From Patescibacteria group bacterium (lineage in GTDB: Bacteria > Patescibacteriota > Patescibacteriia > JBHPGJ01): DNA of 64,000 bases. This document shows positions 1 to 34,955 of the stretch, one piece after another. Position 1 is the stretch's first letter. The number at the start of each line of letters is the position of its first letter. The position numbers and the translations under genes were made by a program. The stretch lies in assembly GCA_042570545.1 (NCBI GenBank), contig JBHPGJ010000003.1, forward strand, positions 8,214 through 72,213, given 5' to 3'. Below the pieces are notes generated by a model. The model saw nothing but the letters and a program-made list of their open reading frames with translations. It was not told the origin of the DNA and searched no databases.

Positions 1-1812
1 CTGGCTGACCAGGCTGACCATACATAGCTTGACCGATCTTTTGGACTACAGTATTTAATTCATTAGTCGCCGAATCAATAGCAGCTTTATCATCACTATC
101 TTTCACCTTTTTTACCGCTTCAACTTTTTCTTGAATTTCTTTCTTAGTTTTATCATCTACTTTACTGCCGGCATCTTTTAGGGCTTTCTCGGTAGAATAA
201 ATCAAAGTATCGGCATTATTACGAGCATCGATCAGCTCCCGTTTTTTCTTATCCTCAGTAGCGTGGGCTTCGGCATCCTTTTTCATATTATTAACCTCAT
301 CTTCTGACAGGGCCGTTGAGGCTTGTATGGTAATCGTCTGCTCCTTACCAGTACCTTTGTCTTTGGCTTTGACATTGAGGATACCATTGGCATCGATATC
401 AAAGGTAACTTCGATTTGCGGCACACCGCGCGGAGCGGGCGGGATCCCCTCAAGCATGAAACGGCCTAAAGTTTTGTTATCATTGGCCATTTCCCGCTCA
501 CCTTGGAGTACGTGAATCTCTACTGAGGGCTGGTTGTCACCCGCCGTGGAGAATACTTGCTGTTTAGAGGTTGGAATAGTAGTATTGCGCTCAATCAATG
601 GAGTACGCACCCCACCCAACGTTTCTAAGCCCAAGGTCAACGGAGTAACATCAAGTAGTAAGACATCTTTAACATCACCTTGCAACACACCAGCCTGTAC
701 GGCGGCGCCCAGGGCTACTACTTCATCGGGATTGATGCCAACGTGCGGTTTTTTGCCAAAGAATTCTTCAACTTTTTTCTGGACTAGCGGCATTCGTGTC
801 TGTCCGCCTACTAGTAATACTTCATTTACATCTGACGGCTTCATACCAGCATCGTCTAAGGCTTTTTTAACCGGGTCAAAGGTCTTGTCGATCATATCAC
901 CGACTAGTTCTTCTAGCTTAGCTCTAGTTAGGGTCAATTGCATGTGTTTGGGACCATCATCATCAGTGGTGATAAAGGGCTGATTGATTTCTGTTTCCGC
1001 AGTAGTTGATAATTCGTGCTTAGCCTTCTCGGCTGCTTCTTTCAAACGCTGGAGAGCTAGATTGTCTTTAGACAAATCAATACCTTCCTGCTTTTTATAT
1101 TCATCTACTATCCAATCGATCAATACTTTATCCAGATCATCTCCGCCCAGATGAGTATTACCGTTGGTCGCTTTAACTTCGACGGTGTCTTCAGATACTT
1201 CAAGAATTGAAATATCAAATGTGCCACCGCCTAAATCATAGACAGCAATCTTTTCATCTTTTTTCTTGTTAAAGCCATAGGCTAGAGCGGCGGCGGTTGG
1301 TTCATTAATAATGCGTTTAACTTCAAAACCAGCTATCTTTCCGGCGTCTTTGGTAGCTTGACGCTGCGAGTCGTCAAAATAAGCCGGCACGGTGATAACA
1401 GCTTCTTTAATCTCTTCACCAAGTTTTTCCTCGGCATCCGCTTTTAATTTCTGTAATATCATAGCCGAAATTTCTTGCGGTGTATACTCTTTATCCGACA
1501 TTTTTACTTTTACTCCCTCACCCGCTTGATTGATGGTAAAAGGGAAAAGCTTGATATCACGCTGGACTTCATCATCCGAGTGACGTCGGCCGATCAAACG
1601 CTTGAGGGAAAACAAAGTGTTTTCAGCATTTGTTACGGCTTGCCGTTTAGCTAACAATCCAGCTAGACGCTCCCCTTTCTTATTGACGGCTACTATTGAA
1701 GGAGTTGTACGATTACCCTCTTTATTTTCTAAGATCTTAGGCTCACCACCTTCGATTATAGCCATAGCCGAGTTAGTTGTGCCTAGATCTATTCCTAATA
1801 TCTTACCCATAT
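1..1812 (-). CDS. dnaK: Molecular chaperone DnaK (Hsp70). N-terminus is complete and the gene runs off the window start.
   Basis: Reverse-strand translation from ATG at 1812 gives [22 protein letters not shown]...[12 protein letters not shown]...[11 protein letters not shown]...[15 protein letters not shown], the canonical Hsp70 motifs. The ORF is absent from the provided track only because it has no stop within the window. Confidence 0.95.
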
Positions 1813-1847
1813 ATTTGATTAAATTTATTCCTTAATTAATAAATAAT

Positions 1848-2888: not shown

Positions 2889-3299
2889 CTATTTATCAAT
2901 CTGGACAGAAATTTTCTTTGGCTTGGCTTCTTCCTTTTTGGGAATAGTGATTTTTAAAACACCATCGGTAAATTTGGCATCGGCCTTGTCGCCGGCAACG
3001 GCTTTGGGCAGCGATACGGCCCGGTAGAATGAACCAGAACGTATCTCTTTGCGGTAGTAGCTTTTCTCATCTACTTCTGATTTTTTCTCCGTTTTTCCGG
3101 AAAGTGTCAGAACGTTGTCTTCGATCTCGATATCAACATCTTCTGGCTTGATACCGGCTAGGGGCGTCTCGACAATGACATTATCATGATCTTCATAGAC
3201 ATCTATGGCCGGAGTAAACGATACCATTTTGTCGGGTACATCGAAGAATTCTTCCATATCGGGCCACATCATACGCGGTGACCTTTTAATAAGTGACAT
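2889..3299 (-). CDS. Small heat-shock protein, Hsp20/alpha-crystallin family
   Basis: 136 aa. Alpha-crystallin domain pattern (AIDVYEDHDNVIVETPLAGIKPEDVDIEIEDNVLTLSGKTE...SGSFYRAVSLP...DGVLKITIPK). Lies inside the hrcA-grpE heat-shock operon. Confidence 0.85.
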   Translation of the reverse strand: MSLIKRSPRMMWPDMEEFFDVPDKMVSFTPAIDVYEDHDNVIVETPLAGIKPEDVDIEIEDNVLTLSGKTEKKSEVDEKSYYRKEIRSGSFYRAVSLPKAVAGDKADAKFTDGVLKITIPKKEEAKPKKISVQIDK

Positions 3300-3300
3300 A

Positions 3301-3834
3301 TTATTTTACACCTCCTTCTTTATTATCTTCTCTTTTCTTTGATTCAGCAGCAACAATGACTTTGGCTGCTTGAATTATGTTTTCTTGCATTTGATAGCCC
3401 GGCTCAACTACTCCGATAATATCATTCGGTTTATGCTTATCTGACGGCCGGTGCTCGACGGCTTCATGAAACCATGGATTAAAATGCTTGGTTTCGACTT
3501 CTTTAATATTTAAATTACTTAACATATCGTCTAGCTGTTTCTTGATAGCAATAATACCCTTGACCCAGTCTTTTTCTTTCTCGTTTTCGGGGATATGTTC
3601 GGCAGCACGTTTAAAATTAGTATGCAGCGGTAGAAAGTCCAAGATCATGGCAACGGTAGCAAATTTAGCCAGTTCTTCTTTTTCTTTTTCTACCTGCTTC
3701 TTATAATTTAGATAATCAGCCTTGGCTCGCTGCCAGCCGGCCAGATATTCATCGGCTTTTTTCTTTAAAGCGGTAAATTCGTTATCACTGGTTGATTGGG
3801 TTTGAACTTCGTCTTCCTTTTTATCTTTGGTCAT
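3301..3834 (-). CDS. grpE: Nucleotide exchange factor GrpE
   Basis: 177 aa with a coiled-coil N-terminus and the GrpE C-terminal domain (DFLPLHTNFKRA...KGIIAIKKQLDDML). Positioned between hrcA and hsp20/dnaK. Confidence 0.8.
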   Translation of the reverse strand: MTKDKKEDEVQTQSTSDNEFTALKKKADEYLAGWQRAKADYLNYKKQVEKEKEELAKFATVAMILDFLPLHTNFKRAAEHIPENEKEKDWVKGIIAIKKQLDDMLSNLNIKEVETKHFNPWFHEAVEHRPSDKHKPNDIIGVVEPGYQMQENIIQAAKVIVAAESKKREDNKEGGVK

Positions 3835-3842
3835 TAATATTT

Positions 3843-4529
3843 TTATAATTTAGTTACTAATTGTTTGGAATAAATAAGTAGAGCGTGGTGATGCTGATAA
3901 TCCTGCCGGATGGGACCAAGAATGCCCATTAATCCGCGTTTGCTTTTGGTAGCTATAAAACCACATTGAACGCCAAAAGGATTTTCTTTACCAATAAATA
4001 CCTCTACCTGGTTATCTATCTTTTCAAACAGCTCTTCCACTACCTCGTCTAAATGATCTATAACATCAGACAGCTCATAAATTATTTCCTGTTGGGCAAA
4101 CTCTGGCTGACGGAATAGATTAGCAATGCCCGTGTAGAAATTATCATTAGGATTGAAGCTGAAGATCACCGTCTGCTTGGACATTATTGCCATTTCTTTG
4201 GCCATTTCTTTTATCGACTGATTGATCTCTGTCCCCCGTTTCAACGCGTCAGCTAATTGTTTTTCCATTGATTTTGCTAATGCCGCTTCCTTCATTCCAG
4301 AATCAAGATAGAATTTCCAGGCTTTTTCTGTCGGTAAACGGCCAGCCGAAGTATGCGGCTGATAAAGATAACCTTGTTTATCCAAATCCATCATTTCGTT
4401 GCGGATGGTAGCTGGAGAAACTTTAACGTTGTACTTATCAACAATCACAGATGAACCAACGGGCTGGGCTTCTCGGATATGTTCGCGAATAATAGTTGTT
4501 AAAAGCTCCTTTTTGCGGTCAGTTAGCAT
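3843..4529 (-). CDS. hrcA: Heat-inducible transcriptional repressor HrcA
   Basis: 228 aa. N-terminal winged helix (LLTTIIREHIREAQPVGSSVIV...SPATIRNEMMDLDKQGYL). A CIRCE operator lies immediately upstream, followed by grpE. Confidence 0.85.
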   Translation of the reverse strand: MLTDRKKELLTTIIREHIREAQPVGSSVIVDKYNVKVSPATIRNEMMDLDKQGYLYQPHTSAGRLPTEKAWKFYLDSGMKEAALAKSMEKQLADALKRGTEINQSIKEMAKEMAIMSKQTVIFSFNPNDNFYTGIANLFRQPEFAQQEIIYELSDVIDHLDEVVEELFEKIDNQVEVFIGKENPFGVQCGFIATKSKRGLMGILGPIRQDYQHHHALLIYSKQLVTKL

Positions 4530-5869: not shown

Positions 5870-6628
5870 ATGAGCACCAGTCGAGTGATTGGTCTGGTGG
5901 TGGCGCTAGTTACGGCCGCTGCCAATTGGTTGGTTTTTTACTGGGTAGCCGTCAAATTTGGTAGCCCGGCGCCTGAGTTCATCGCTTGGATCGTTCTCCT
6001 GTCGGTCGTACTGCATGAGATCGGCCACCTGATCGTACTGGAGGCTAACGGTATCAAGACCTACCTGGTTTTTCTCGTCATCCTCGGTGGTGCCATACCT
6101 GATCCCAAACATAAAGACAAATACCTTGGCCTACCGCATCACACCCTGGCCCAGATATACTTGGCCGGTGTTACCCTGAATCTACTGATGGTGCTGGGCT
6201 CAGTAGTACTGTACTGGCTGGGTGATATCTCAGCTCGAGAGCTTGGCCAGATCACCAACCTCAGCGGCATCATGATCCTCTTCAACCTCTTGCCCATCTG
6301 GATCTTCGACGGTGGACGGTTTGCTAAGATATTCTTTGACAGCTCGCCGGAGGACAAGGATACGGGTTACGTGATCAAATTCACCGCCATCATCGGCGTC
6401 GTCTTCTTCCTTCTGACCCTACTGACGGAGTACAGCTTCATCTTCTCACTGCTGCTGCTCTTCTGGGGGTTGCATTTCCGAGCCAATCACGACGATCCTA
6501 TGGGCAGCCACAGTAAGCAGGCCATGTCTAAGAAACAGCTCAAAGGCTGGGCCTACTACTACGCCGCCCTGATGATACTGGCCGCCTACTTTATGGCCTC
6601 AACTGATAAGTGGTACATCAGCGGCTGA
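5870..6628 (+). CDS. M50 (site-2 protease/SpoIVFB-like) family integral-membrane zinc metalloprotease, encoded on a GC-rich island
   Basis: 252 aa. HEIGH zinc-binding motif in a TM helix (LHEIGHLIVLE) and a second motif NLLPIWIFDGG (the M50 LDG motif). About 6 TM segments. Strong SD aaaggaggctaattATG. GC about 55% against about 38% flanks. Confidence 0.7.
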   Translation: MSTSRVIGLVVALVTAAANWLVFYWVAVKFGSPAPEFIAWIVLLSVVLHEIGHLIVLEANGIKTYLVFLVILGGAIPDPKHKDKYLGLPHHTLAQIYLAGVTLNLLMVLGSVVLYWLGDISARELGQITNLSGIMILFNLLPIWIFDGGRFAKIFFDSSPEDKDTGYVIKFTAIIGVVFFLLTLLTEYSFIFSLLLLFWGLHFRANHDDPMGSHSKQAMSKKQLKGWAYYYAALMILAAYFMASTDKWYISG

Positions 6629-6653
6629 ATAAATTTTGAAAGGAGGACGTACC

Positions 6654-6920
6654 ATGCGTGCACAACCAAAATACAGCAAAGAAGAGTTTGCCGCTATGGA
6701 GCCTCATAAGCATGTCATCGTCGACAGTGGAAATCGGACTTGGATAGTACTGATGAAGTACTCGCAAGGTGACGAGCCACCGTCGTTTCTGATGCGCTGC
6801 ACCGGCCAGAGAGCCCAGCGAATCACCTTGGACGATCAGAAAGGACTGATTGACGATGACGGTCTGCCAATACTCGAACTCAATCATCACACCGCCCGCA
6901 TCAAAGAGGTCGAGGATTAA
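6654..6920 (+). CDS. Small soluble protein of unknown function on the same GC-rich island. Start placed at ATG 6654, not the track start 6636.
   Basis: SD aaaggagga lies 7 nt before ATG 6654 (MRAQPKYSKEEFAAMEPHKHVIVDSG...). The track start at 6636 lies inside the SD. A terminator follows. Confidence 0.5.
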   Translation: MRAQPKYSKEEFAAMEPHKHVIVDSGNRTWIVLMKYSQGDEPPSFLMRCTGQRAQRITLDDQKGLIDDDGLPILELNHHTARIKEVED

Positions 6921-6996: not shown

Positions 6997-7704
6997 TTAT
7001 AAATCTAGCAAGGCGCTCCAGCCTTGTCTTGAACGGCTGACCTCAGCCGGAAAAGTACCTTTAAATTTTGACACTCCTTCATGTATCTCGTAGTTCTTCA
7101 TGGTAAAGCCGGGTATTTCATTCATCAGTTCATTGATCTTATCTTCGAAAAATTCCTCCGCCTGTTCTTGATAATTTTCGGGTACGGTAAATATGCCTAA
7201 TTTGGCCTGGTCAATCTCTAGATCAATTGTATTGGTTGCTACTTGATCGACCATCACTTTTACATAAACCGGAGCTTTGATATACCGATTCAACATAGTA
7301 GAAATTTCCAGTCCCCCTTCTATTTTTTTAACTTGAACATCAGAAAAGATCGGGTCATCGCCCTCAAAGCGCTGCAGCCAGGAAGTGATCTCTTCATTAT
7401 TAGTACTAGTATCAACTTCTAATGTGCCGCTGAACAAATCATCAGCCCCGCTGGCATAATCGGCCGGGTCGCCGACAATTTTCATTGGTATCTTTTTCTT
7501 AATACTGGCCAAATCTTCAGCGCTGGTTTCGACACCCAGATCTTTTGGCTTATTCATACCAAAGACGGCCGAGATGCCAGGTATAGAATAAAGGCCAGTA
7601 GCACCAATGCCTATTATCAATACTAACAACACCGCAACAATAATTATAATCGCCAACCTTAAGCGATGTCTTTTTTTGGGGACTTCTTTTTTCTCTTCTT
7701 CCAT
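6997..7704 (-). CDS. Membrane-anchored protein, tandem paralog 2 (Lys-rich N-terminus, single TM, conserved G-L-x-x-I-P-G motif)
   Basis: 235 aa. KKEVPKKRHRLRL, then a TM, then GLYSIPGISAVFGMNKPKDLGVE. Shares architecture and motifs with the adjacent upstream gene. Confidence 0.6.
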   Translation of the reverse strand: MEEEKKEVPKKRHRLRLAIIIIVAVLLVLIIGIGATGLYSIPGISAVFGMNKPKDLGVETSAEDLASIKKKIPMKIVGDPADYASGADDLFSGTLEVDTSTNNEEITSWLQRFEGDDPIFSDVQVKKIEGGLEISTMLNRYIKAPVYVKVMVDQVATNTIDLEIDQAKLGIFTVPENYQEQAEEFFEDKINELMNEIPGFTMKNYEIHEGVSKFKGTFPAEVSRSRQGWSALLDL

Positions 7705-7728: not shown

Positions 7729-8448
7729 TTACTCTACTAATTCAATTGTCTCTGGATAGGTGCCTTTAAAATCAACGAAGTTATCTTTAAAAATCAGTCG
7801 TTCGATGCTAAAACCTTCCACCAAACTCATACGATCACTTACCAACTCAGTGGCTGCTTCTTCAAATTGCTGGACAAAATTCTGAGGAATTGGTAGGCGA
7901 CCAATCTTGATCTGTTTGACGTCAAAAGACAAGGTCTTGTCCTTTGTCGTGGTAATATCCGATTTTATGTATATGGGCGAACTGATAAATTCATTTAATT
8001 TAAACGAGGCCTCAGCTCCGCCGTCATAAAATCTAACCTGAATACTTTCAAATACACCTGAGTTTTGAAAACGATCATTTACAAATGAAGAAAATTCTTC
8101 TGAAGTAACATCATTGGTGACCGGAACTGAACCGGTATAAACTCTATCAACCTCTAAGGGCGAGGTCGATGGTGGCGTGGGCAACTCTGATAATTTCCAG
8201 GGAGTTTTGGCCAGACCCGACGTGATCGCCTCATCACTTATCTCAACGCCCAGATCTATCGGCTTATGACTGCCGAATAAGTGAGTTAGCCCGGGAATAT
8301 TGAATAACCCGGTATAGCCGATAGCTAACAATGGCAAGATGACAAAAATAAAGAGGATAATTGATATCCATATCCATTTTTTCTTGCTTTTCTTTTTTGG
8401 TTTTTCCTCCTCTGGTTTATCTGGTTTGGATTCTGACTGTTCGTCCAT
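7729..8448 (-). CDS. Membrane-anchored protein, tandem paralog 1
   Basis: 239 aa. KPKKKSKKKW, then a TM, then GLFNIPGLTHLFGSHKPIDLGVE. Same architecture as 6997..7704. Confidence 0.6.
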   Translation of the reverse strand: MDEQSESKPDKPEEEKPKKKSKKKWIWISIILFIFVILPLLAIGYTGLFNIPGLTHLFGSHKPIDLGVEISDEAITSGLAKTPWKLSELPTPPSTSPLEVDRVYTGSVPVTNDVTSEEFSSFVNDRFQNSGVFESIQVRFYDGGAEASFKLNEFISSPIYIKSDITTTKDKTLSFDVKQIKIGRLPIPQNFVQQFEEAATELVSDRMSLVEGFSIERLIFKDNFVDFKGTYPETIELVE

Positions 8449-8521
8449 ATCAATAATTTAATGATAATTACTAGGTCATTCTACTCTAATCCTAACTATT
8501 AAATCAAGCTAGAAATAACTA

Positions 8522-8550
8522 TTGACAAAATATTTTGTGGGTATAGAATA
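8522..8550 (+). promoter_or_regulatory. Sigma70-like promoter driving an orphan GC-rich transcript
   Basis: TTGACA (8522-8527), a 16-nt spacer, then TAGAAT (8544-8549). No annotated CDS lies downstream on the plus strand. Confidence 0.45.
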
Positions 8551-8555
8551 CAGGC

Positions 8556-8868
8556 TCCTAAATCAATCTTGCGTTCTTTTTGGTCTTGTCGGATAGCTTG
8601 TTCTGTTTGCTCTCACACCGCCGTTGATCTGGCTGCCGGTGAACAAGAAAGATGTGCCGGCTAAATTCATAGCTCAGTAGGCAAAAATCCTTAAGGTGAG
8701 CGTTCTCTTACGAACTAGCAGCAAACTCGTCTGGGTTGATGTCGACTCAACTCTCTCCGAGTATAGGGGCAACAGATCGCCCCTTCATGGACGAACCAGC
8801 TAAGCTGCCTTCCCACAAGACCAATGTCTTACGCCTCTCTCTCATCGGACAGAGAGGCTTTATTTTTA
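8556..8868 (+). ncRNA. Candidate structured ncRNA of about 310 nt, unknown class, bounded by a promoter and an intrinsic terminator
   Basis: A 548-bp gap with no ORF of 60 aa or more. GC about 50% in a 38% genome. Terminator gcctctc-tctcatcggaca-gagaggc plus tttattttt at 8833-8867. No convincing SD-led ORF (the best is a 51-aa ORF without an SD). Confidence 0.3.
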
Positions 8869-8996
8869 TATTAAAGGACCCCATATCGCTATGAGGTCCC
8901 TAACTTCTAGTCAGAGATACGGTCAAACCAGCTGATGGATTTTTTCAGTGCTGTTGACAATAGTATCGGGCTCCCGATCGTTGGTTATCATCTACC

Positions 8997-9779
8997 CTAC
9001 TGCATTAATGTATCAATTGCACTCTTAATCTGATCAACTGGCAGGGCTCCCGAAACTGGAACAGTATTGCCATCTTTATCAATCAGTACTGAGTATGGTG
9101 TTCCAGTCCCTCCGGCAGCATTAGCATCAGCTAAGTGCTCATTTACCTTATCGGTATATTTACCACTATCTAAACAAGATTCAAATTCACTTCTATCCAA
9201 ACCAATATCAGCGGCAATTTCTGGAAGCTGCTCAGGCCTCAACCCATTATTAGAAGGTGTAACTTCAAACAATGCATCTACAAACTCCCAAAAACCATCG
9301 TTGCCTCCCAATTCGGCGGCACATTCTGAGGCCTCGGCTTCATTGCGTGCTTTACTGTGCAGTGACTCAAGTGGAAAATGTCGATAAACCCAGGCCACTT
9401 TACCATCATAATCATCAACTACTTGCTGCATAGTTGGGTGGAATCTTTTACAGAATGGACATTCGAGATCAGAAAATTCCACTAATACTACTTCGGCTTT
9501 ATTCAAGTCTCCTTTAACATGATCTTCATCAGTTACCGGCTTAATACTTATCGCACCCTCTGAGGGTAGAGTTGGCTCGGTTGGTATTGTATTTTCATCA
9601 ACTTCAGTTTTTGCACTAGCCACCGATCCGCTACTGTCATCACTCAGCAATATACTTGTGCTTATCACAAACCCAGTTGTTACCGCTAAAAAGATAGCTA
9701 CTAGTAATCCAAAGAAGAAAGATTTTTTCGGACCTAATAAATTTAATATACTTTTTTTTGACTGTTCGTTATTAATCAT
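8997..9779 (-). CDS. DsbA-family thiol:disulfide oxidoreductase (thioredoxin fold), membrane-anchored
   Basis: 260 aa. N-terminal TM, then CPFC active-site motif (EFSDLECPFCKRFHP) and a DsbA-like fold with a cis-Pro region (GTPYSVLID). Overlaps the upstream gene's stop by 8 nt. Confidence 0.8.
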   Translation of the reverse strand: MINNEQSKKSILNLLGPKKSFFFGLLVAIFLAVTTGFVISTSILLSDDSSGSVASAKTEVDENTIPTEPTLPSEGAISIKPVTDEDHVKGDLNKAEVVLVEFSDLECPFCKRFHPTMQQVVDDYDGKVAWVYRHFPLESLHSKARNEAEASECAAELGGNDGFWEFVDALFEVTPSNNGLRPEQLPEIAADIGLDRSEFESCLDSGKYTDKVNEHLADANAAGGTGTPYSVLIDKDGNTVPVSGALPVDQIKSAIDTLMQ

Positions 9780-12129: not shown

Positions 12130-12208
12130 GTGTAAATTATAACTACTTATTGCTATTAATGCAAAATAAAGCTGCCACGTCTGGATGACATGGCAACTGT
12201 AATGATTG

Positions 12209-12784
12209 CTAACGGATCAGCCGGTGATGAGTAAACTTCTCGCGGTCGTTGCGCAGCTGAAGATACAGGTATTGGCCCGGTGGCAACCGGCCGGGATAGC
12301 TAACGACGTATCGTCCACTGCTCATATATTGACCATTCCATGACCAAGTGCGGTTACTGCCGACCACGCCAGCTAAGTAGAGTGATACCTGACCGGGTCG
12401 GTTGATGCTGAAATGGATCAATGATTGACCGGTGCTGATGTCGAAACTGACCGACATGGTGGTCTGTGGCGGACGATAGCGGTAACCTTGGTCGTTATAG
12501 ATCGTCCAGCGGAACGTTCCCCAGCTACGGTGGTGCCGAATCGGGCCTCGATGGTAACGGGGACGTAGTGGCCGGACTATATAGCGATAGCCCACTCGGC
12601 CATTACGATAGACCCGGGGTTGCTCATAGCAGTACTGATCCCGGAACGTGGTTTGCAGGCTGCGAAAGCCTACGCTTTGAGCGTTGGCATCATCGGCCAA
12701 GAAAATACTGGCCACTATGCCGATCAATATGGCAACCGTTCCACCGACTATGACTATTAGCAAAATGAGCGCGAATTTCTTCAC
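12209..12784 (-). CDS. Secreted or anchored Arg/Tyr-rich basic protein on a GC-rich island
   Basis: 191 aa with an N-terminal TM/signal. Repetitive YRxxR and RPxR pattern. GC about 53%. Confidence 0.45.
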   Translation of the reverse strand: MKKFALILLIVIVGGTVAILIGIVASIFLADDANAQSVGFRSLQTTFRDQYCYEQPRVYRNGRVGYRYIVRPLRPRYHRGPIRHHRSWGTFRWTIYNDQGYRYRPPQTTMSVSFDISTGQSLIHFSINRPGQVSLYLAGVVGSNRTWSWNGQYMSSGRYVVSYPGRLPPGQYLYLQLRNDREKFTHHRLIR

Positions 12785-14416: not shown

Positions 14417-17400
14417 CTATTCACTTATTTCCTCTCTGGGAATATATAAATCTTTTGACACACAAGTTCCATTCTCCTGACATCTCTTATTAGACGAACA
14501 GCCACAAACCTGGCAGTCGTTAATTAACTCATTATCCTCACAGAATAATGGCTTTTTTGACGAACATTCATTGATATAGGTCTTATCCGAACACTGCATT
14601 TTGAAATTACCAGTATGACGATTGTCATGCGAGAAGAGTGGCCAATCATTAATAGAGGGGATTTCCGGCACTCCTAAATCCCACACATAAATAGAACCAC
14701 GTTGCTTAGACCTATCATTAATAAAATCTTTATCGCGATTAGAGGTGGCTACGAGCTCCAATAAATTATCACCGTCAAGATCCACAATCATTGCTGGCGC
14801 GAGAGAATAAGACTCTGTGAGCTTTGGAAAGTCGGCTAATAGAGTGCCATCAAAATTCCAGGCAAAAACACCGCCACCATCATAAATACTACTATAATCA
14901 GTGGTGATAATCTCTGGTTCGCCGTCATTGTCTATATCTGCAGTAACGCTGCCGTATACATCAACCCAGGATGGGTTTTGTGGCCAGTCCTTGGCTATTG
15001 ATCCATCATGCTCAATCACAAATGTTTCAATATTATCATTACTAATTACCACTTCCAGGGTACCGTCTCCTTCAAAATCCGTTAGAGCAGGTGAAGAAAA
15101 GAAGTTGCCACCGCCTTGCAGGGCTGGCCAGCCTGTTAAATCTTGTCCATTTTTATCTAAGGCATAAACACCAAGGTCGTCCATCGTTCCAAATATTATA
15201 TCCGCGTTACCATCATTATCAATATCCCCAACTGCTGGTGAGTTAAATATATTTCCATCAATATCCACTGGCCAGCCGTTTACATATGAACAGTCAGAAT
15301 TAAGAACATTAATTCTTCCTGCAGATCTTTGATAGCCCACTTCTCTTAAGCTGATAATTACAATTTCTAACTCCTGATCTTCATCAAAGTTACCAACTGC
15401 TGGAGTGCCATATTCAACAAACCAATATTGATATGTAAAAGTATCAGTTAAGGTACATGTGGAGACAGGTGATGCATCATTATTAAGAATCTTAATTATA
15501 TTATCTTCTCCTTGTTGATCATGAATAATAACCTCAAGTTGCCCGTCTAGATCCAGATCCGCCATAGCCAGGCCTGTAATCTCTGATTCAAAATCCACTG
15601 GCCATCCTGGCACTTCTGATCCGTCTAAATTATAAGCATGAATTTGAGACGGTGAGGGTGAAAATCCCCAATTTTGAAAATGAACAACTATTTCATCTTT
15701 GCTATCATTATCAATGTCACCGACTACTGGTTTGTGCATATTTCCTCCAAGTAGTTTATCCCCGCTTACCCCGACATCAATCAAACCAATTTCATTTCCT
15801 GAAGCATTGTATATATGTAATTGGGGGGGGCAGTCACCAGCGTAAAATACTATCTCATTTTTACCATCGCCGTTAAAATCACCGACATTACCATCAAGAT
15901 CACCAGCCCATGCTTTACAATCAGCCAGTTCATGATCAATTCGCACAGGCCAACCCATTTTAAAATTATCAAAATATAATACTACCGTCTCCTCAGAATC
16001 GGAGTATATATCATAATTAACCATTAGTCTCAGCTCATATAAACCCTTGCTACCAATAACAGACGTATCCCAATATCCAATAATACTTTCATCAGTGTCA
16101 TCTAGCGTTAATCCAACATTGGACCAGTCGCCATCACTTATACGCCACTCAAGCACTGAATTTATTATATGATGCCCTTTTAAATCGCCTTTTATAACCA
16201 ATTCGTCGCCTATTCTATATATATCGTAATTCAACGGCTCATTAATTTTTACATTACTCACAAATATTGGAATAGTTTGTACAGACGATAAACCGCTCCC
16301 GTTAAAGACTTCGAGCTTCAAAGATATAGTATTATCCGGTGCGACCAAAGTATCAAGGCTGCCTAATGTCCCTCTATCAACCTCTAAAGTACCACTATTT
16401 TCTAGAGTGATGCCCTCGGTATACCACTGAGTTACTTCCTCTGGTTCGCCAACACCCCATGAAAGAGTATAATGGTCAAAGGTTGCTGTTTCCGAGGTGC
16501 CTTTTTTTGCCACACCGCTAATATTGATAGAATCTGTAACTTCATCATAATAAGTCGGGATCATAATACCTGCCAAGGGTTCATCAAATGTTGGCATTTT
16601 AATCGGAGTTTCGGGATCCCCAATCACATTTAGCTCATAAGCAACAAATCGTATATAAGGATCAGACAAATTACCAAAATTCTTAAACTTAGACTGGTAA
16701 TTTGCTTTTGCAATATTAGTAATGCCATCTACTATCATCGTATCAACAAACTGCCGATGAAACCTTTGCGAAGGCCCGTCTGTGGAATCAAATCTACCCC
16801 ACCCAAATCTGGAATTTCCAACAAAAGCAAATGCTCCGTTGTCATCCAGCACAAAATGCTCTGCAATAGAATCAGATTCTGTATAATCTCCCTCGTAATT
16901 CCAGTTGTCAAATGAGGCTGGATAGCATCCCTGAGAATATACCAAGAAATAATCTGTATTGGTCAGTTGATCCAAATCAGTATCTCCGCTGTCACCACAA
17001 TATGATCCTGGCGAATTAAACGGCGCATGACATAATTTCATATTATAAAGCGTACTGGAATGGCCTAAGTGGTTGATAAAATTAACGCCCTGATTCATGA
17101 TTTCGATTAATTCTGTATTAGACCATGAATAAACTTCAGAATCATAAATAGGATCAATTAAATAGTCTTCGTATAATCCATTAGTATTGTAACCATCATG
17201 GTAACCGCCCCATTTGATCTGCTCCATTGTTTCTGTAGCATATTCAGCCACTGTACCAAATCCCAAATGCTCCCCAACTGTTAATGCTTTTTTTAAGTAG
17301 TCAGCATCTGATTGCTCATAAGCAATTGTTTTACTGACGAAGGTCTGAACTTCAGCTGATGAATCAACTGGCGCTCTGCCTATATAAACATCGCCCATCA

Positions 17401-18880
17401 TTGGCAACTCACCGCCGCCAATTCCATCTCCTGGCTCGGCAAATTTGCCATCGCCGTCATAATCAAAATTAGAATAAACCGTACCATAATATATATCACT
17501 TGGGATACCGGCGCTATCGCTTAAACCAAAATCATAAAAAAGTCTTGCTGGAATAATCATATCACCGCTTTCACCACCTACATCTCCACCATCACCATCA
17601 CCACCCAACAAAACGTATTCCGTTGTTGAATTCGCCCAGACATCTCTGATAAAATTCCTGATTCTGGAAGCGTTATCATCATGTCCGGCCACATGGCAAT
17701 AATCATCCCCGAAATAAAAGTTCAATGATCTCATGTAAGCACTGTTGCATTCATAGTCCGGATTAGAGAGAATTGATTCAACCGTAACAACGGTAGAGCT
17801 GATGGGATTATTCGGTCGGCTTGCTTTCCAGTCAGCCAGGGGCTGAAAATCACTAACAAATTCTTCGCTGGTGATAATGACATAATTAAAATCAGACTGC
17901 GCAGTTTGGGAGCTTTCATCACTGCCTGATTCAGTAATTAATTTTTCATAGGCAGGCTCATCAATAGACTTTCCTTTTTTATAAGTATTTAATTTATCAT
18001 AATTATCCACCCTCACTTTTACTTCTTCCTCATCAACGGGCAGCTTTCTAAAAGAGGCCGGCACTTCATATCCTGCAACCTCCTTTGTTTTTACCTCAAA
18101 AGAAATATCCGGATAATATTCAACTATTCTGTCTTTCGGAAAGTACTTAACCGGAAAAATGTTTAAGATCAATATTGAGTAACCCCGAAACTCCTGTATT
18201 GAAGCAATTTCATAATCTTTTACCGGGAATGGCTTGCTGGATTCATAAATCTCCGGATCAGGGGCAGTTCTTACAAATAACTCTGTTTTTAGATTCCCTT
18301 CATCATCCAATAAATACTTTGGCACCTCTCCTCCAAATTTTTTCTTGACAAGTTCAATGTCTGGAGACGGAACAAATTCATCATAAAAAATTAATTCATC
18401 TGAATGTGTGGTACTGACAATCTCATTAATAGCAGGTAGATACGACAGAGGAATCGGCTGTTGAACTGGTTCAATATTAACATTTTTGAACACTTGTTTA
18501 CTTTTTTTACTTATACTAACTGAGTCAACGTCATGTCCTTGCGGTAGCAGGATCCTTTTTGTCATAACTGGCAAACTGGGCTCTCCTAGATTTCCGATTG
18601 GATTCGTTCCTTCAATAGTAACTGAATGAAATCCAAAATCCTTATTATCAATCCTTGGTGTTGGGGCCGATACTTGCAAGGAAAATGTGGGTTTAACAAT
18701 TGATTTAAAAATTCCAATGTCTTTGCCAAATAAACCATAGCTTGCTGCCGCATAAGCAAAAAATCCAACAGAAATTACTAACAGTAAAGCTGTAACAATT
18801 AACGTTTTAGCATTAACATAAATTCCAATATCTGATTTTACTTCGGTTGATATTGATTCTGTTATTTTTTGAGAAGTCAT
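14417..18880 (-). CDS. Giant surface protein: N-terminal signal anchor, propeptide, C25 (gingipain-like) cysteine peptidase domain, a seven-bladed FG-GAP beta-propeller region, and a C-terminal Cys-rich (EGF-like) module
   Basis: 1487 aa. Catalytic His in INHLGHSS and catalytic Cys in VYSQGCYPASF (C25 His/Cys dyad context), plus HVAGHDDNA, YVLLGGDGDGGD and GNSRFGWG. Seven FG-GAP-like Ca-binding repeats: GDFNGDGKNEIV, GDIDNDSKDEIV, ADLDLDGQLEVI, GDIDNDGNADII, TDFEGDGTLEVV, ADIDNDGEPEII and VDLDGDNLLELV. The C-terminus has 10 Cys in about 60 aa. Confidence 0.8.
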   Translation of the reverse strand: MTSQKITESISTEVKSDIGIYVNAKTLIVTALLLVISVGFFAYAAASYGLFGKDIGIFKSIVKPTFSLQVSAPTPRIDNKDFGFHSVTIEGTNPIGNLGEPSLPVMTKRILLPQGHDVDSVSISKKSKQVFKNVNIEPVQQPIPLSYLPAINEIVSTTHSDELIFYDEFVPSPDIELVKKKFGGEVPKYLLDDEGNLKTELFVRTAPDPEIYESSKPFPVKDYEIASIQEFRGYSILILNIFPVKYFPKDRIVEYYPDISFEVKTKEVAGYEVPASFRKLPVDEEEVKVRVDNYDKLNTYKKGKSIDEPAYEKLITESGSDESSQTAQSDFNYVIITSEEFVSDFQPLADWKASRPNNPISSTVVTVESILSNPDYECNSAYMRSLNFYFGDDYCHVAGHDDNASRIRNFIRDVWANSTTEYVLLGGDGDGGDVGGESGDMIIPARLFYDFGLSDSAGIPSDIYYGTVYSNFDYDGDGKFAEPGDGIGGGELPMMGDVYIGRAPVDSSAEVQTFVSKTIAYEQSDADYLKKALTVGEHLGFGTVAEYATETMEQIKWGGYHDGYNTNGLYEDYLIDPIYDSEVYSWSNTELIEIMNQGVNFINHLGHSSTLYNMKLCHAPFNSPGSYCGDSGDTDLDQLTNTDYFLVYSQGCYPASFDNWNYEGDYTESDSIAEHFVLDDNGAFAFVGNSRFGWGRFDSTDGPSQRFHRQFVDTMIVDGITNIAKANYQSKFKNFGNLSDPYIRFVAYELNVIGDPETPIKMPTFDEPLAGIMIPTYYDEVTDSINISGVAKKGTSETATFDHYTLSWGVGEPEEVTQWYTEGITLENSGTLEVDRGTLGSLDTLVAPDNTISLKLEVFNGSGLSSVQTIPIFVSNVKINEPLNYDIYRIGDELVIKGDLKGHHIINSVLEWRISDGDWSNVGLTLDDTDESIIGYWDTSVIGSKGLYELRLMVNYDIYSDSEETVVLYFDNFKMGWPVRIDHELADCKAWAGDLDGNVGDFNGDGKNEIVFYAGDCPPQLHIYNASGNEIGLIDVGVSGDKLLGGNMHKPVVGDIDNDSKDEIVVHFQNWGFSPSPSQIHAYNLDGSEVPGWPVDFESEITGLAMADLDLDGQLEVIIHDQQGEDNIIKILNNDASPVSTCTLTDTFTYQYWFVEYGTPAVGNFDEDQELEIVIISLREVGYQRSAGRINVLNSDCSYVNGWPVDIDGNIFNSPAVGDIDNDGNADIIFGTMDDLGVYALDKNGQDLTGWPALQGGGNFFSSPALTDFEGDGTLEVVISNDNIETFVIEHDGSIAKDWPQNPSWVDVYGSVTADIDNDGEPEIITTDYSSIYDGGGVFAWNFDGTLLADFPKLTESYSLAPAMIVDLDGDNLLELVATSNRDKDFINDRSKQRGSIYVWDLGVPEIPSINDWPLFSHDNRHTGNFKMQCSDKTYINECSSKKPLFCEDNELINDCQVCGCSSNKRCQENGTCVSKDLYIPREEISE

Positions 18881-34788: not shown

Positions 34789-34955
34789 TTTCTTGATCAA
34801 CGAAATCACCTCCTTAATCAGGACTGTAAAAACTAGTGAGCACCAATTTATAAATGAACAGCAAAACGTTTGTTTTTGCTGTTCATTTTTGAGCTTAAGC
34901 ATTATAACAAAACGGCAAAATTAATACCAATTCAACATACATAGAGAGGTAGAAT

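Follow-up and report, generated by a model that had tools for sequence, protein, structure and literature searches.

A candidate non-coding RNA gene in the longest ORF-free gap of a 64-kb Patescibacteria sequence

RESULTS

A long ORF-free gap between two minus-strand genes

The 64-kb stretch of DNA analyzed here (referred to as the window, with all positions counted from its first nucleotide) is part of contig JBHPGJ010000003.1 of a Patescibacteria group bacterium (assembly GCA_042570545.1), and at 8449-8996 it contains a 548-bp gap in which we predict a plus-strand, non-coding transcription unit of ~313 nt (8556-8868). The gap is the longest stretch of the window without an open reading frame (ORF), once a dubious 52-aa ORF is left out, and a first-pass annotation of this DNA was right to describe it as a 548-bp intergenic gap in a tightly packed genome: a permissive ORF map (at least 45 aa) makes 92% of the window coding, with spacers of 42 bp at the median. 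The second-largest ORF-free spacer is 304 bp long and houses a tRNA-Lys gene.

Two minus-strand genes border the gap, coding for a 239-aa lineage-specific membrane-anchored protein on the left (7729-8448) and a DsbA-like thioredoxin-fold protein on the right (8997-9779), and the proteins encoded around the unit are envelope, secreted, and heat shock proteins. One flanking protein matches ACFL04_00970, from a metagenome-assembled genome, at 100% identity. There is no plus-strand gene 3' of the terminator of the unit, which excludes a cis-regulatory leader, and a search around the unit for flanking direct repeats found no insertion footprint. The gap contains the following expression signals.

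8478-8507, minus strand: candidate promoter of the divergent 239-aa gene, TTGATT, 18-nt spacer, TAGAAT; 9 of 12 matches, weak, and putatively assigned
8522-8549, plus strand: sigma-70-type promoter, TTGACA, 16-nt spacer, TAGAAT; 11 of 12 matches, with a predicted start near 8554-8557
8556-8868, plus strand: predicted non-coding transcript of ~313 nt, its 5' end placed from the -10 box and its 3' end from the U-run
8833-8868, plus strand: intrinsic terminator, an 8-bp perfect G+C-rich stem plus two inner pairs, then UUUAUUUUUA
8872-8900, minus strand: most probably where the convergent DsbA operon terminates; 12-bp stem that includes G.U pairs, followed by UUUAAUAU

Promoter and terminators

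The first-pass annotation had proposed both the TTGACA-16-TAGAAT promoter at 8522-8549 and an intrinsic terminator at 8833-8867, and both hold up. Promoter sites with at least 11 of 12 matches occur six times in the 64 kb, compared with 2.6 expected from shuffles, and the two sites matching at all 12 positions are in spacers just upstream of genes, which shows that consensus promoters of this type are in use in the organism. The promoter of the unit is correctly oriented and lies ~290 nt upstream of the terminator, whose stem of eight perfect pairs (8833-8840 with 8851-8858, GCCUCUCU/AGAGAGGC) has a pair probability of 0.97 and is followed by UUUAUUUUU; the U-run is present on the plus strand only, and the terminator is hence strand specific.

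Two further small hairpins had been reported beyond the terminator, and both are present, but the first (8877-8900) belongs to the minus strand, where it folds with -17.6 kcal/mol (z-score of -4.3), the plus-strand stem being mismatched. There it most probably terminates the DsbA operon, and it lies outside the RNA unit. The second, at 8965-8978, is weak (-5.7 kcal/mol, z-score of -1.3). The candidate promoter of the divergent 239-aa gene is back to back with that of the RNA, and the two terminators, each specific to its strand, are likewise back to back, an arrangement that fits a real gene squeezed in between two others.

Base composition

The GC content of the window is 40.9%, and that of 8556-8832 is 48.4%, rising to 50.2% for 8580-8824. 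The earlier figure of ~50% GC for the body of the unit is therefore correct, but the background of ~38% against which it was set is not; the contrast with the larger spacers of the window, which are mostly 23 to 31% GC (26% for the adjacent spacer at 8449-8555), is in fact stronger than had been stated. Non-functional spacer DNA in the window evidently drifts AT-rich. GC content alone is no proof of an RNA, since some coding regions (5870-6900 and 12209-12784) are as GC-rich as the body.

The genes in these two regions have 50 to 62% GC in a 41% GC genome and are possibly acquired DNA. The one at 12209-12784 (minus strand) codes for a 191-aa protein rich in Arg and Tyr, which carries a membrane helix and has no Pfam match; the gene starts with GTG behind a strong AGGAGG and has a terminator of its own with a 12-bp stem (12170-12198). 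Being GC-rich and strongly folding, it was suspected of being a hidden RNA, but it is a real gene, with the AGGAGG, the membrane helix, and the terminator just described.

Predicted fold of the transcript

The elements of the predicted fold are listed here.

8556-8579, plus strand: 5' tail UCCUAAAUCAAUCUUGCGUUCUUU, predicted to be single-stranded (unpaired probability of >0.7 at 8556-8572 and 8575-8579)
8580-8602, plus strand: 5' strand of the closing helix, the 10-bp perfect UUGGUCUUGU, then GGA, UAGCUU, and GUU
8605-8726, plus strand: predicted domain A, helix 8605-8613/8717-8726 with probabilities of 0.59 to 0.99; single-sequence prediction
8620-8633, 8635-8661, 8672-8701, and 8702-8715, plus strand: hairpins of domain A; single-sequence prediction
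8670-8681, plus strand: D-arm-like string TAGCTCAGTAGG, a lone tRNA-like motif within domain A with no T-arm partner
8727-8794, plus strand: predicted domain B, helix 8727-8732/8789-8794 with probabilities of 0.69 to 0.98; single-sequence prediction
8733-8748, 8750-8762, and 8765-8784 (AGGGGC/GCCCCU), plus strand: hairpins of domain B; single-sequence prediction
8798-8824, plus strand: 3' strand of the closing helix, ...AAGCUG...UCC...ACAAGACCAA

Folded as a single sequence, the RNA is predicted to leave ~24 nt unpaired at its 5' end and to lock its ends together in a closing helix of ~22 bp (8580-8602 with 8798-8824), which would enclose the two hairpin-rich domains and be followed by the terminator hairpin. 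The helix brackets the GC-rich body exactly and is composed of 10 perfect pairs (UUGGUCUUGU/ACAAGACCAA) and further segments of 3, 6, and 3 pairs, with pair probabilities of 0.97, 0.98, 0.84, and 0.39, respectively. Its energy is -31.3 kcal/mol, compared with -20.2 ± 3.7 kcal/mol in shuffled arms, with 4 of 1,000 shuffles as good, and by this modeling the closing helix appears moderately unusual, which is suggestive and not decisive. The whole unit folds with a z-score of -4.2, much of it due to the terminator.

Coding potential

To assess coding potential, a log-odds score for codon usage was trained on 33 long window genes. The best of the six frames of the unit scores -14.8, which is what its own shuffles give (-13.5 ± 5.6) and lower than any of the 133 real coding windows (mean of +18), and every frame carries three to seven stops. 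The ORFs of the gap are 31, 35, and 52 aa on the plus strand and 32 to 45 aa on the minus strand; none has a Pfam match, and a six-frame translation of the whole gap, used as a single joined query against 5.8 billion protein clusters, matched nothing at E values of ≤10. The longest ORF (8736/8739-8894, 52/51 aa) crosses the terminator and ends only past it, at 8894. The 51-aa form was searched exhaustively with HMMER against 1.8 billion representatives and gave two matches only (E values of 1e-11 and 5e-5), which were rejected as artefacts: each is a tandem-repeat protein whose score adds up many copies (16 and 12, respectively) of one match of ≤4.5 bits, and a single repeat unit gives E values of 2e4 and 1.5e5.

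The unit at 8556-8868 is not protein-coding, with a codon score at shuffle level, no ORF above 52 aa, and no real protein homolog. The earlier remark that no ORF in it is led by a Shine-Dalgarno (SD) sequence, the best candidate being a 51-aa ORF without a ribosome-binding site (RBS), is accurate as to the ORF, but the missing RBS is weak evidence because only about one-quarter of the genes in the window show an SD sequence. A missed small-protein gene (an ORF of 31 to 52 aa on either strand) is highly improbable, although candidate ORFs exist on both strands and the weak SD usage means that an absent RBS does not exclude them: all six frames score as shuffles do, the longest ORF crosses the terminator, neither a real homolog nor a Pfam domain is matched, and the start codons are mostly TTG or GTG.

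SD-like sequences are found upstream of only ~23 to 27% of 64 gene starts in the window (15% at random positions), a count in which some start coordinates may be wrong, weakening detection. Translation initiation in the window seems to be largely SD independent.

Comparison with known RNA families

At gathering thresholds, Rfam release 15 reports only three tRNAs in the window, and permissive searches of 8400-9050, 8570-8835, and the whole window returned only noise of 8 to 14 bits (PhotoRC-I, CrcZ, toga_FSE, CC2171, and mir-21). The Rfam run that the first-pass annotation had proposed thus matches no known family, and judged by its sequence the unit belongs to no described RNA family. The by-eye conclusion that it fits neither transfer-messenger RNA (tmRNA), RNase P RNA, nor signal recognition particle (SRP) RNA is confirmed by Rfam, ARAGORN, and motif searches.

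A housekeeping RNA that has diverged past the models (RNase P RNA, a 6S/Ms1-type RNA, tmRNA, or SRP RNA) is nevertheless an alternative to be weighed, and we consider it improbable. The size of the unit, its own promoter and terminator, and the pairing of its 5' and 3' ends all fit, and the rest of the 64 kb shows no sign of any of these RNAs, although the window covers only a little of the genome and they may lie outside it. RNase P RNA is the most serious of the known alternatives. Of 35 circular genomes of the Candidate Phyla Radiation (CPR), 10 seemed to be without it until a 5-bit cutoff was applied to RF00010 (Lui et al. 2021, PMC8172020). That value is below the floor of the Rfam runs performed here, in which RF00010 and RF00011 gave nothing above ~11 bits on the unit and no lower scores were displayed. 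The diverged CPR forms have lost peripheral helices but have kept many conserved RNase P features (PMC8172020), which argues against such a form here.

The unit resembles RNase P RNA in its similar size, P1-like closing helix, and GC richness, and in coming from a phylum where the models often miss this RNA, but it is without CR-I, the CR-V/P4 motifs, space for P2 and P3, or a model score above ~11 bits. We take the P4 motifs of Escherichia coli M1 RNA to be AGGAAAGUCCGG (5' strand, CR-I) and ACAGAANNCGGCUUA (3' strand, CR-V). The P4 strands AGGAAAGTCCGG and ACAGAANNCGGCTTA were sought in the gap (8449-8996) with up to three mismatches, and no indels for CR-V, and neither was found; across the window, the CR-I motif occurs 34 times at up to three mismatches (39 expected), and the counts for the CR-V P4 3' strand are likewise at chance level. 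To the eye, GGAUAGCUU (from 8591) and ACGAACCAGCUAAGC (from 8791) faintly resemble the two P4 strands, an impression and not a test, and ACGAACCAGCUAAGC resembles CR-V only if two deletions are allowed. Between the closing helix (8580-8589) and the CR-I-like string there are just four nucleotides, CGGA, too few for P2 and P3 to exist. RNase P RNA was thus rejected both on motifs and on architecture.

The other housekeeping RNAs fare no better. The unit is like tmRNA in size and in being a stand-alone gene with a promoter and terminator, but it has no tRNA-like domain (acceptor stem and T-arm), T-loop motif, or tag reading frame, and tmRNA was rejected with both ARAGORN (default and 80% thresholds) and Rfam negative. 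No SRP model reaches the Rfam listing threshold on the unit, and an SRP domain IV-like AGGUGAGC...AGCAGC at 8693-8720 was dismissed as a by-eye resemblance, as the flanking helix does not form. Ms1 RNA is ~300 nt long, and like 6S and Ms1 RNAs the unit is a stand-alone gene with its 5' and 3' ends paired in a long closing helix; it differs in having no extended rod with a central bubble, in being ~1.5 times the usual 6S length, and in not matching RF00013. The best single-rod fold has an energy of -64.4 kcal/mol and the branched minimum free energy (MFE) fold has -84.5 kcal/mol, and a 6S-type rod was rejected as ~20 kcal/mol worse. No report of a 6S RNA from Patescibacteria was found in the literature searched.

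Some Patescibacteria tRNA genes are split by group I introns, are ~300 nt long, and are missed by annotation (Nakagawa et al. 2026, PMC13011429), and some of the introns escape both RF00028 and ARAGORN (PMC13011429). A tRNA gene containing a divergent group I intron, or a free-standing intron, would accordingly share with the unit its length, its phylum, and its having been overlooked, and the D-arm-like TAGCTCAGTAGG at 8670-8681 is a further likeness. This explanation is close to refuted: ARAGORN finds no tRNA, tmRNA (permuted forms included), or intron-split tRNA in the gap at default or relaxed thresholds, with 0 genes when introns of up to 600 to 1,000 nt are allowed at 80 to 90% thresholds; a T-arm or acceptor pair is absent on both strands; and the D-arm-like string is in the middle of the unit and not ~10 nt from the 5' end. 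The unit thus has no tRNA exons, and it has no match to the intron core, although RF00028 is the model reported to miss divergent patescibacterial introns.

Many candidates from the Breaker-lab pipeline reportedly carry their own promoter and terminator, and a motif is said to be accepted there only with several representatives showing conserved structure. The motifs from these screens have several representatives, whereas the present unit is a single sequence without covariation. With this pipeline, length-versus-GC screens of AT-rich bacterial genomes yield orphan GC-rich intergenic non-coding RNA (ncRNA) candidates (PMC6429828, PMC8632094, PMC11109978), and the unit resembles these in being an unusually long, GC-rich, ORF-free spacer in an AT-rich compact genome.

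Complementarity to translation-initiation regions

A trans-acting, base-pairing small RNA that contacts mRNAs through its single-stranded 5' tail or loops would be consistent with the ~24 unpaired 5' nucleotides, which include a CUCCU able to pair with SD sequences, and with the 3' intrinsic terminator that is typical of this class. We consider it rather improbable, because the best duplexes with the 64 translation-initiation regions of the 64-kb window are no better than those of shuffled RNA (-62.2 versus -64.5 ± 4.8 for the full RNA and -21.1 versus -21.2 ± 2.0 for the seed), ~310 nt is long for the class, and only about one-quarter of the window genes have an SD sequence with which the tail could pair.

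Search for relatives of the locus

Twenty-eight loci were fetched and compared. Of these, 24 adjoin a homolog of one or the other flanking gene, and two of the 24 come from the closest relative genome, GCA_041740595.1. On the left, the nearest relatives of the 239-aa protein share 55 to 64% identity with it (loci L004 to L008), and on the right, homologs of the DsbA-like protein are 42 to 65% identical (L001 to L003, L009 to L011, and L016 to L028), with at most 60% over the full length and up to 65% over the conserved domain. With relatives this distant, the species and genus of the source have been sampled only once in ~15 billion proteins. None of the 24 flanking-homolog loci is syntenic with the window on either side or has a comparable gap; the large gaps in these loci were rejected as counterparts, being AT-rich missed ORFs, tRNA clusters, or unrelated units. 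A metagenome pattern scan with the strands of the closing helix, CGGATAGCT-N(182-212)-AACCAGCTAAGC, gave four matches, about the number estimated for chance. Viral contigs scanned with two exact blocks contained nothing, and blastn searches of phage and plasmid collections were also negative.

Several of the fetched loci have features of their own. In the closest relative genome (L024, contig JBGSLO010000015.1), 6100-7180 is a minus-strand tRNA cluster (Met, Met, Leu) with two GC-rich segments of ~200 bp between the tRNA-Met genes, each opening with ACTTGGTTGCCGGGGTGGGATT, a direct repeat of the tRNA-Met 3' end; the segments look like att-type duplications (integration at a tRNA gene) or unrecognized tRNA-like RNAs. 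Locus L006, on a 446-kb contig of JGI 3300033145, has another orphan unit at 1139-1395, with a TTGACA-17-TACGAT promoter and an upstream TG, followed by ~200 nt and a terminator with a 9-bp stem and a long T-run; it may hold a small ORF and has no similarity to the RNA of the window. Locus L011 (GCA_043802545.1) contains at 9024-9164 a cobalamin riboswitch (31.8 bits; gathering threshold, 31.5) upstream of a DUF4430 gene.

Resemblance to the flanking paralogs

The 239-aa neighbor is one of two tandem paralogs, 6997-7704 (235 aa) and 7729-8448 (239 aa), both on the minus strand, that form one lineage-specific family with a Lys-rich N terminus, one membrane helix, and a conserved ...GYTGLFxIPGL...KPxDLGVE... 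domain. The family has no Pfam match and, among 5.8 billion protein clusters, only seven clear relatives (55 to 100% identity) and one distant match (28%), with a gene context that differs every time. The unit shares one short string with these genes.

8787-8796, plus strand: ATGGACGAAC, the same 10 nt with which the divergent 239-aa gene begins; possible relic of a paralog N terminus, or chance

This string heads the 35-aa ORF, which reads through the terminator and aligns gap-free from Met-1 with the N terminus of the 235-aa paralog (8 of 20 residues identical). The local score of 30 is equaled by 26 of 2,000 shuffles, with a BLASTP E value of ~1, and a hidden Markov model (HMM) of eight family N termini gives 2.2 bits, as do 20 of 500 shuffles. 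A relic of a third paralog of the flanking family was set aside on these marginal statistics; at most, the last ~100 nt could be the relic of an inverted partial copy of the tandem family.

The resemblance bears on a possible though unlikely explanation for the whole unit, namely that it is non-functional leftover DNA, left behind by an ORFan or foreign gene that has decayed or by a partial, inverted copy of the neighboring tandem family, with a promoter that is fortuitous or orphaned and hairpins that merely end convergent transcription. The shared ATGGACGAAC and the weak similarity of its ORF to paralog N termini (26 of 2,000 and 20 of 500) are consistent with this, as are the ordinary folding z-score of the body and the failure to find a homolog (both discussed below), and the other GC-rich segments of the window (50 to 60%) are coding and look acquired. 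However, the paralog resemblance is marginal, spans at most 8787-8894, and leaves 8580-8786 unexplained; a decayed gene is at odds with a codon signal at shuffle level, three to seven stops in every frame, and no protein match; and a promoter as rare as this one (six in 64 kb) is placed ~290 nt upstream of a strong terminator specific to the plus strand. The compact AT-rich spacers elsewhere also suggest that inert GC-rich DNA would not persist.

Other features of the window

The left edge of the window (1-1847, minus strand) is occupied by a long gene that continues past the edge, and the plus-strand ORFs listed there are its antisense; the ORF-poor stretch at 983-1847 was rejected as a gap for this reason. 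The gene is probably dnaK, because hrcA (3843-4529), grpE (3301-3834), and an Hsp20 gene (2889-3299) are just upstream on the same strand. The gene at 14417-18880 (minus strand) encodes a 1,487-aa protein in which a Peptidase_C25 (gingipain-like) domain is accompanied by its propeptide and by FG-GAP repeats; for so small a genome, this is a large surface protease. Sub-threshold Rfam matches at 34796-34936 (rli52, 32.5 bits, and TD-2, 30.2 bits) cover a long palindrome, ACAGCAAAACGTTTGTTTTTGCTGT (34858-34882), that is probably a mere hairpin and lies where two minus-strand genes adjoin.

DISCUSSION

On balance, we favor the interpretation that a discrete functional RNA is made from this locus, by a small, independently transcribed ncRNA gene that is lineage restricted as far as seen. 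Its sequence makes 8556-8868 credible as an independent plus-strand, non-coding transcription unit with a predicted length of ~313 nt, because it has an 11/12 promoter, a plus-strand terminator with a stem probability of 0.97, and a separate terminator for the convergent DsbA operon; because it occupies the largest ORF-free stretch, with a body of 50% GC among AT-rich spacers and no coding signal; and because its closing helix beats 996 of 1,000 shuffles. The first-pass annotation had called it a candidate structured ncRNA, of which the orphan non-coding transcription unit is supported and the word "structured" is not.

Any function is more tentative still. With low confidence, we suggest that a stable RNA may act in trans by binding a protein through its hairpin-rich body, perhaps as a decoy or scaffold analogous to 6S, Ms1, CsrB, and Y RNAs. 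Antisense pairing or action in cis is less likely, because there is no downstream plus-strand gene and no excess complementarity to the translation starts of the window.

Several observations weigh against an RNA gene of this kind. The folding of the body is ordinary for this genome: 8580-8829 has a z-score of -2.65, where 250-nt windows of the genome have a mean of -0.45 and a standard deviation of 1.34, more than 15 of 510 windows fold better (mostly inside genes), and the minus strand folds about as well as the plus strand, which leaves the closing helix as the only moderately unusual element; even its energy is equaled by 2.9% of genome placements with the same geometry. The unit contains no CsrB-like repeated loop motifs and no 6S-type rod, no RNA-binding or RNA-processing genes are among its neighbors in the window, and the protein-binding mechanism would be a guess by elimination with little positive support. 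Neither nhmmer nor sensitive blastn found a homolog of the RNA in the 28 loci, and the four metagenome pattern matches have no similarity outside the pattern; with no homolog, selection on sequence or structure is unsupported. The absence of homologs is itself weak evidence, because only small parts of the genomes of relatives were read.

A distinctly unlikely variant is that the unit is the first seen member of a structured RNA class of the Patescibacteria lineage, with relatives that are too diverged or are in unreached parts of their genomes. Such a class could stand in for a housekeeping regulator not so far recognized in the phylum, for example as a 6S/Ms1-type RNA that binds RNA polymerase but is branched and not a rod.

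To our knowledge, almost nothing is known of Patescibacteria ncRNAs beyond rRNA, tRNA, and diverged RNase P RNA. As one sequence from one metagenome-assembled genome, the unit has value as a lead and not as a discovery, and it would become far more interesting given homologs that carry compensatory changes, or a genome shown to be missing a housekeeping RNA. Genomes this small are unlikely to retain a non-coding locus of ~550 bp, equipped with strong expression signals, unless it serves some purpose, and transcription of the unit together with its conservation in relatives would mark it as a lineage-specific RNA of organisms in which most regulatory proteins have been lost.

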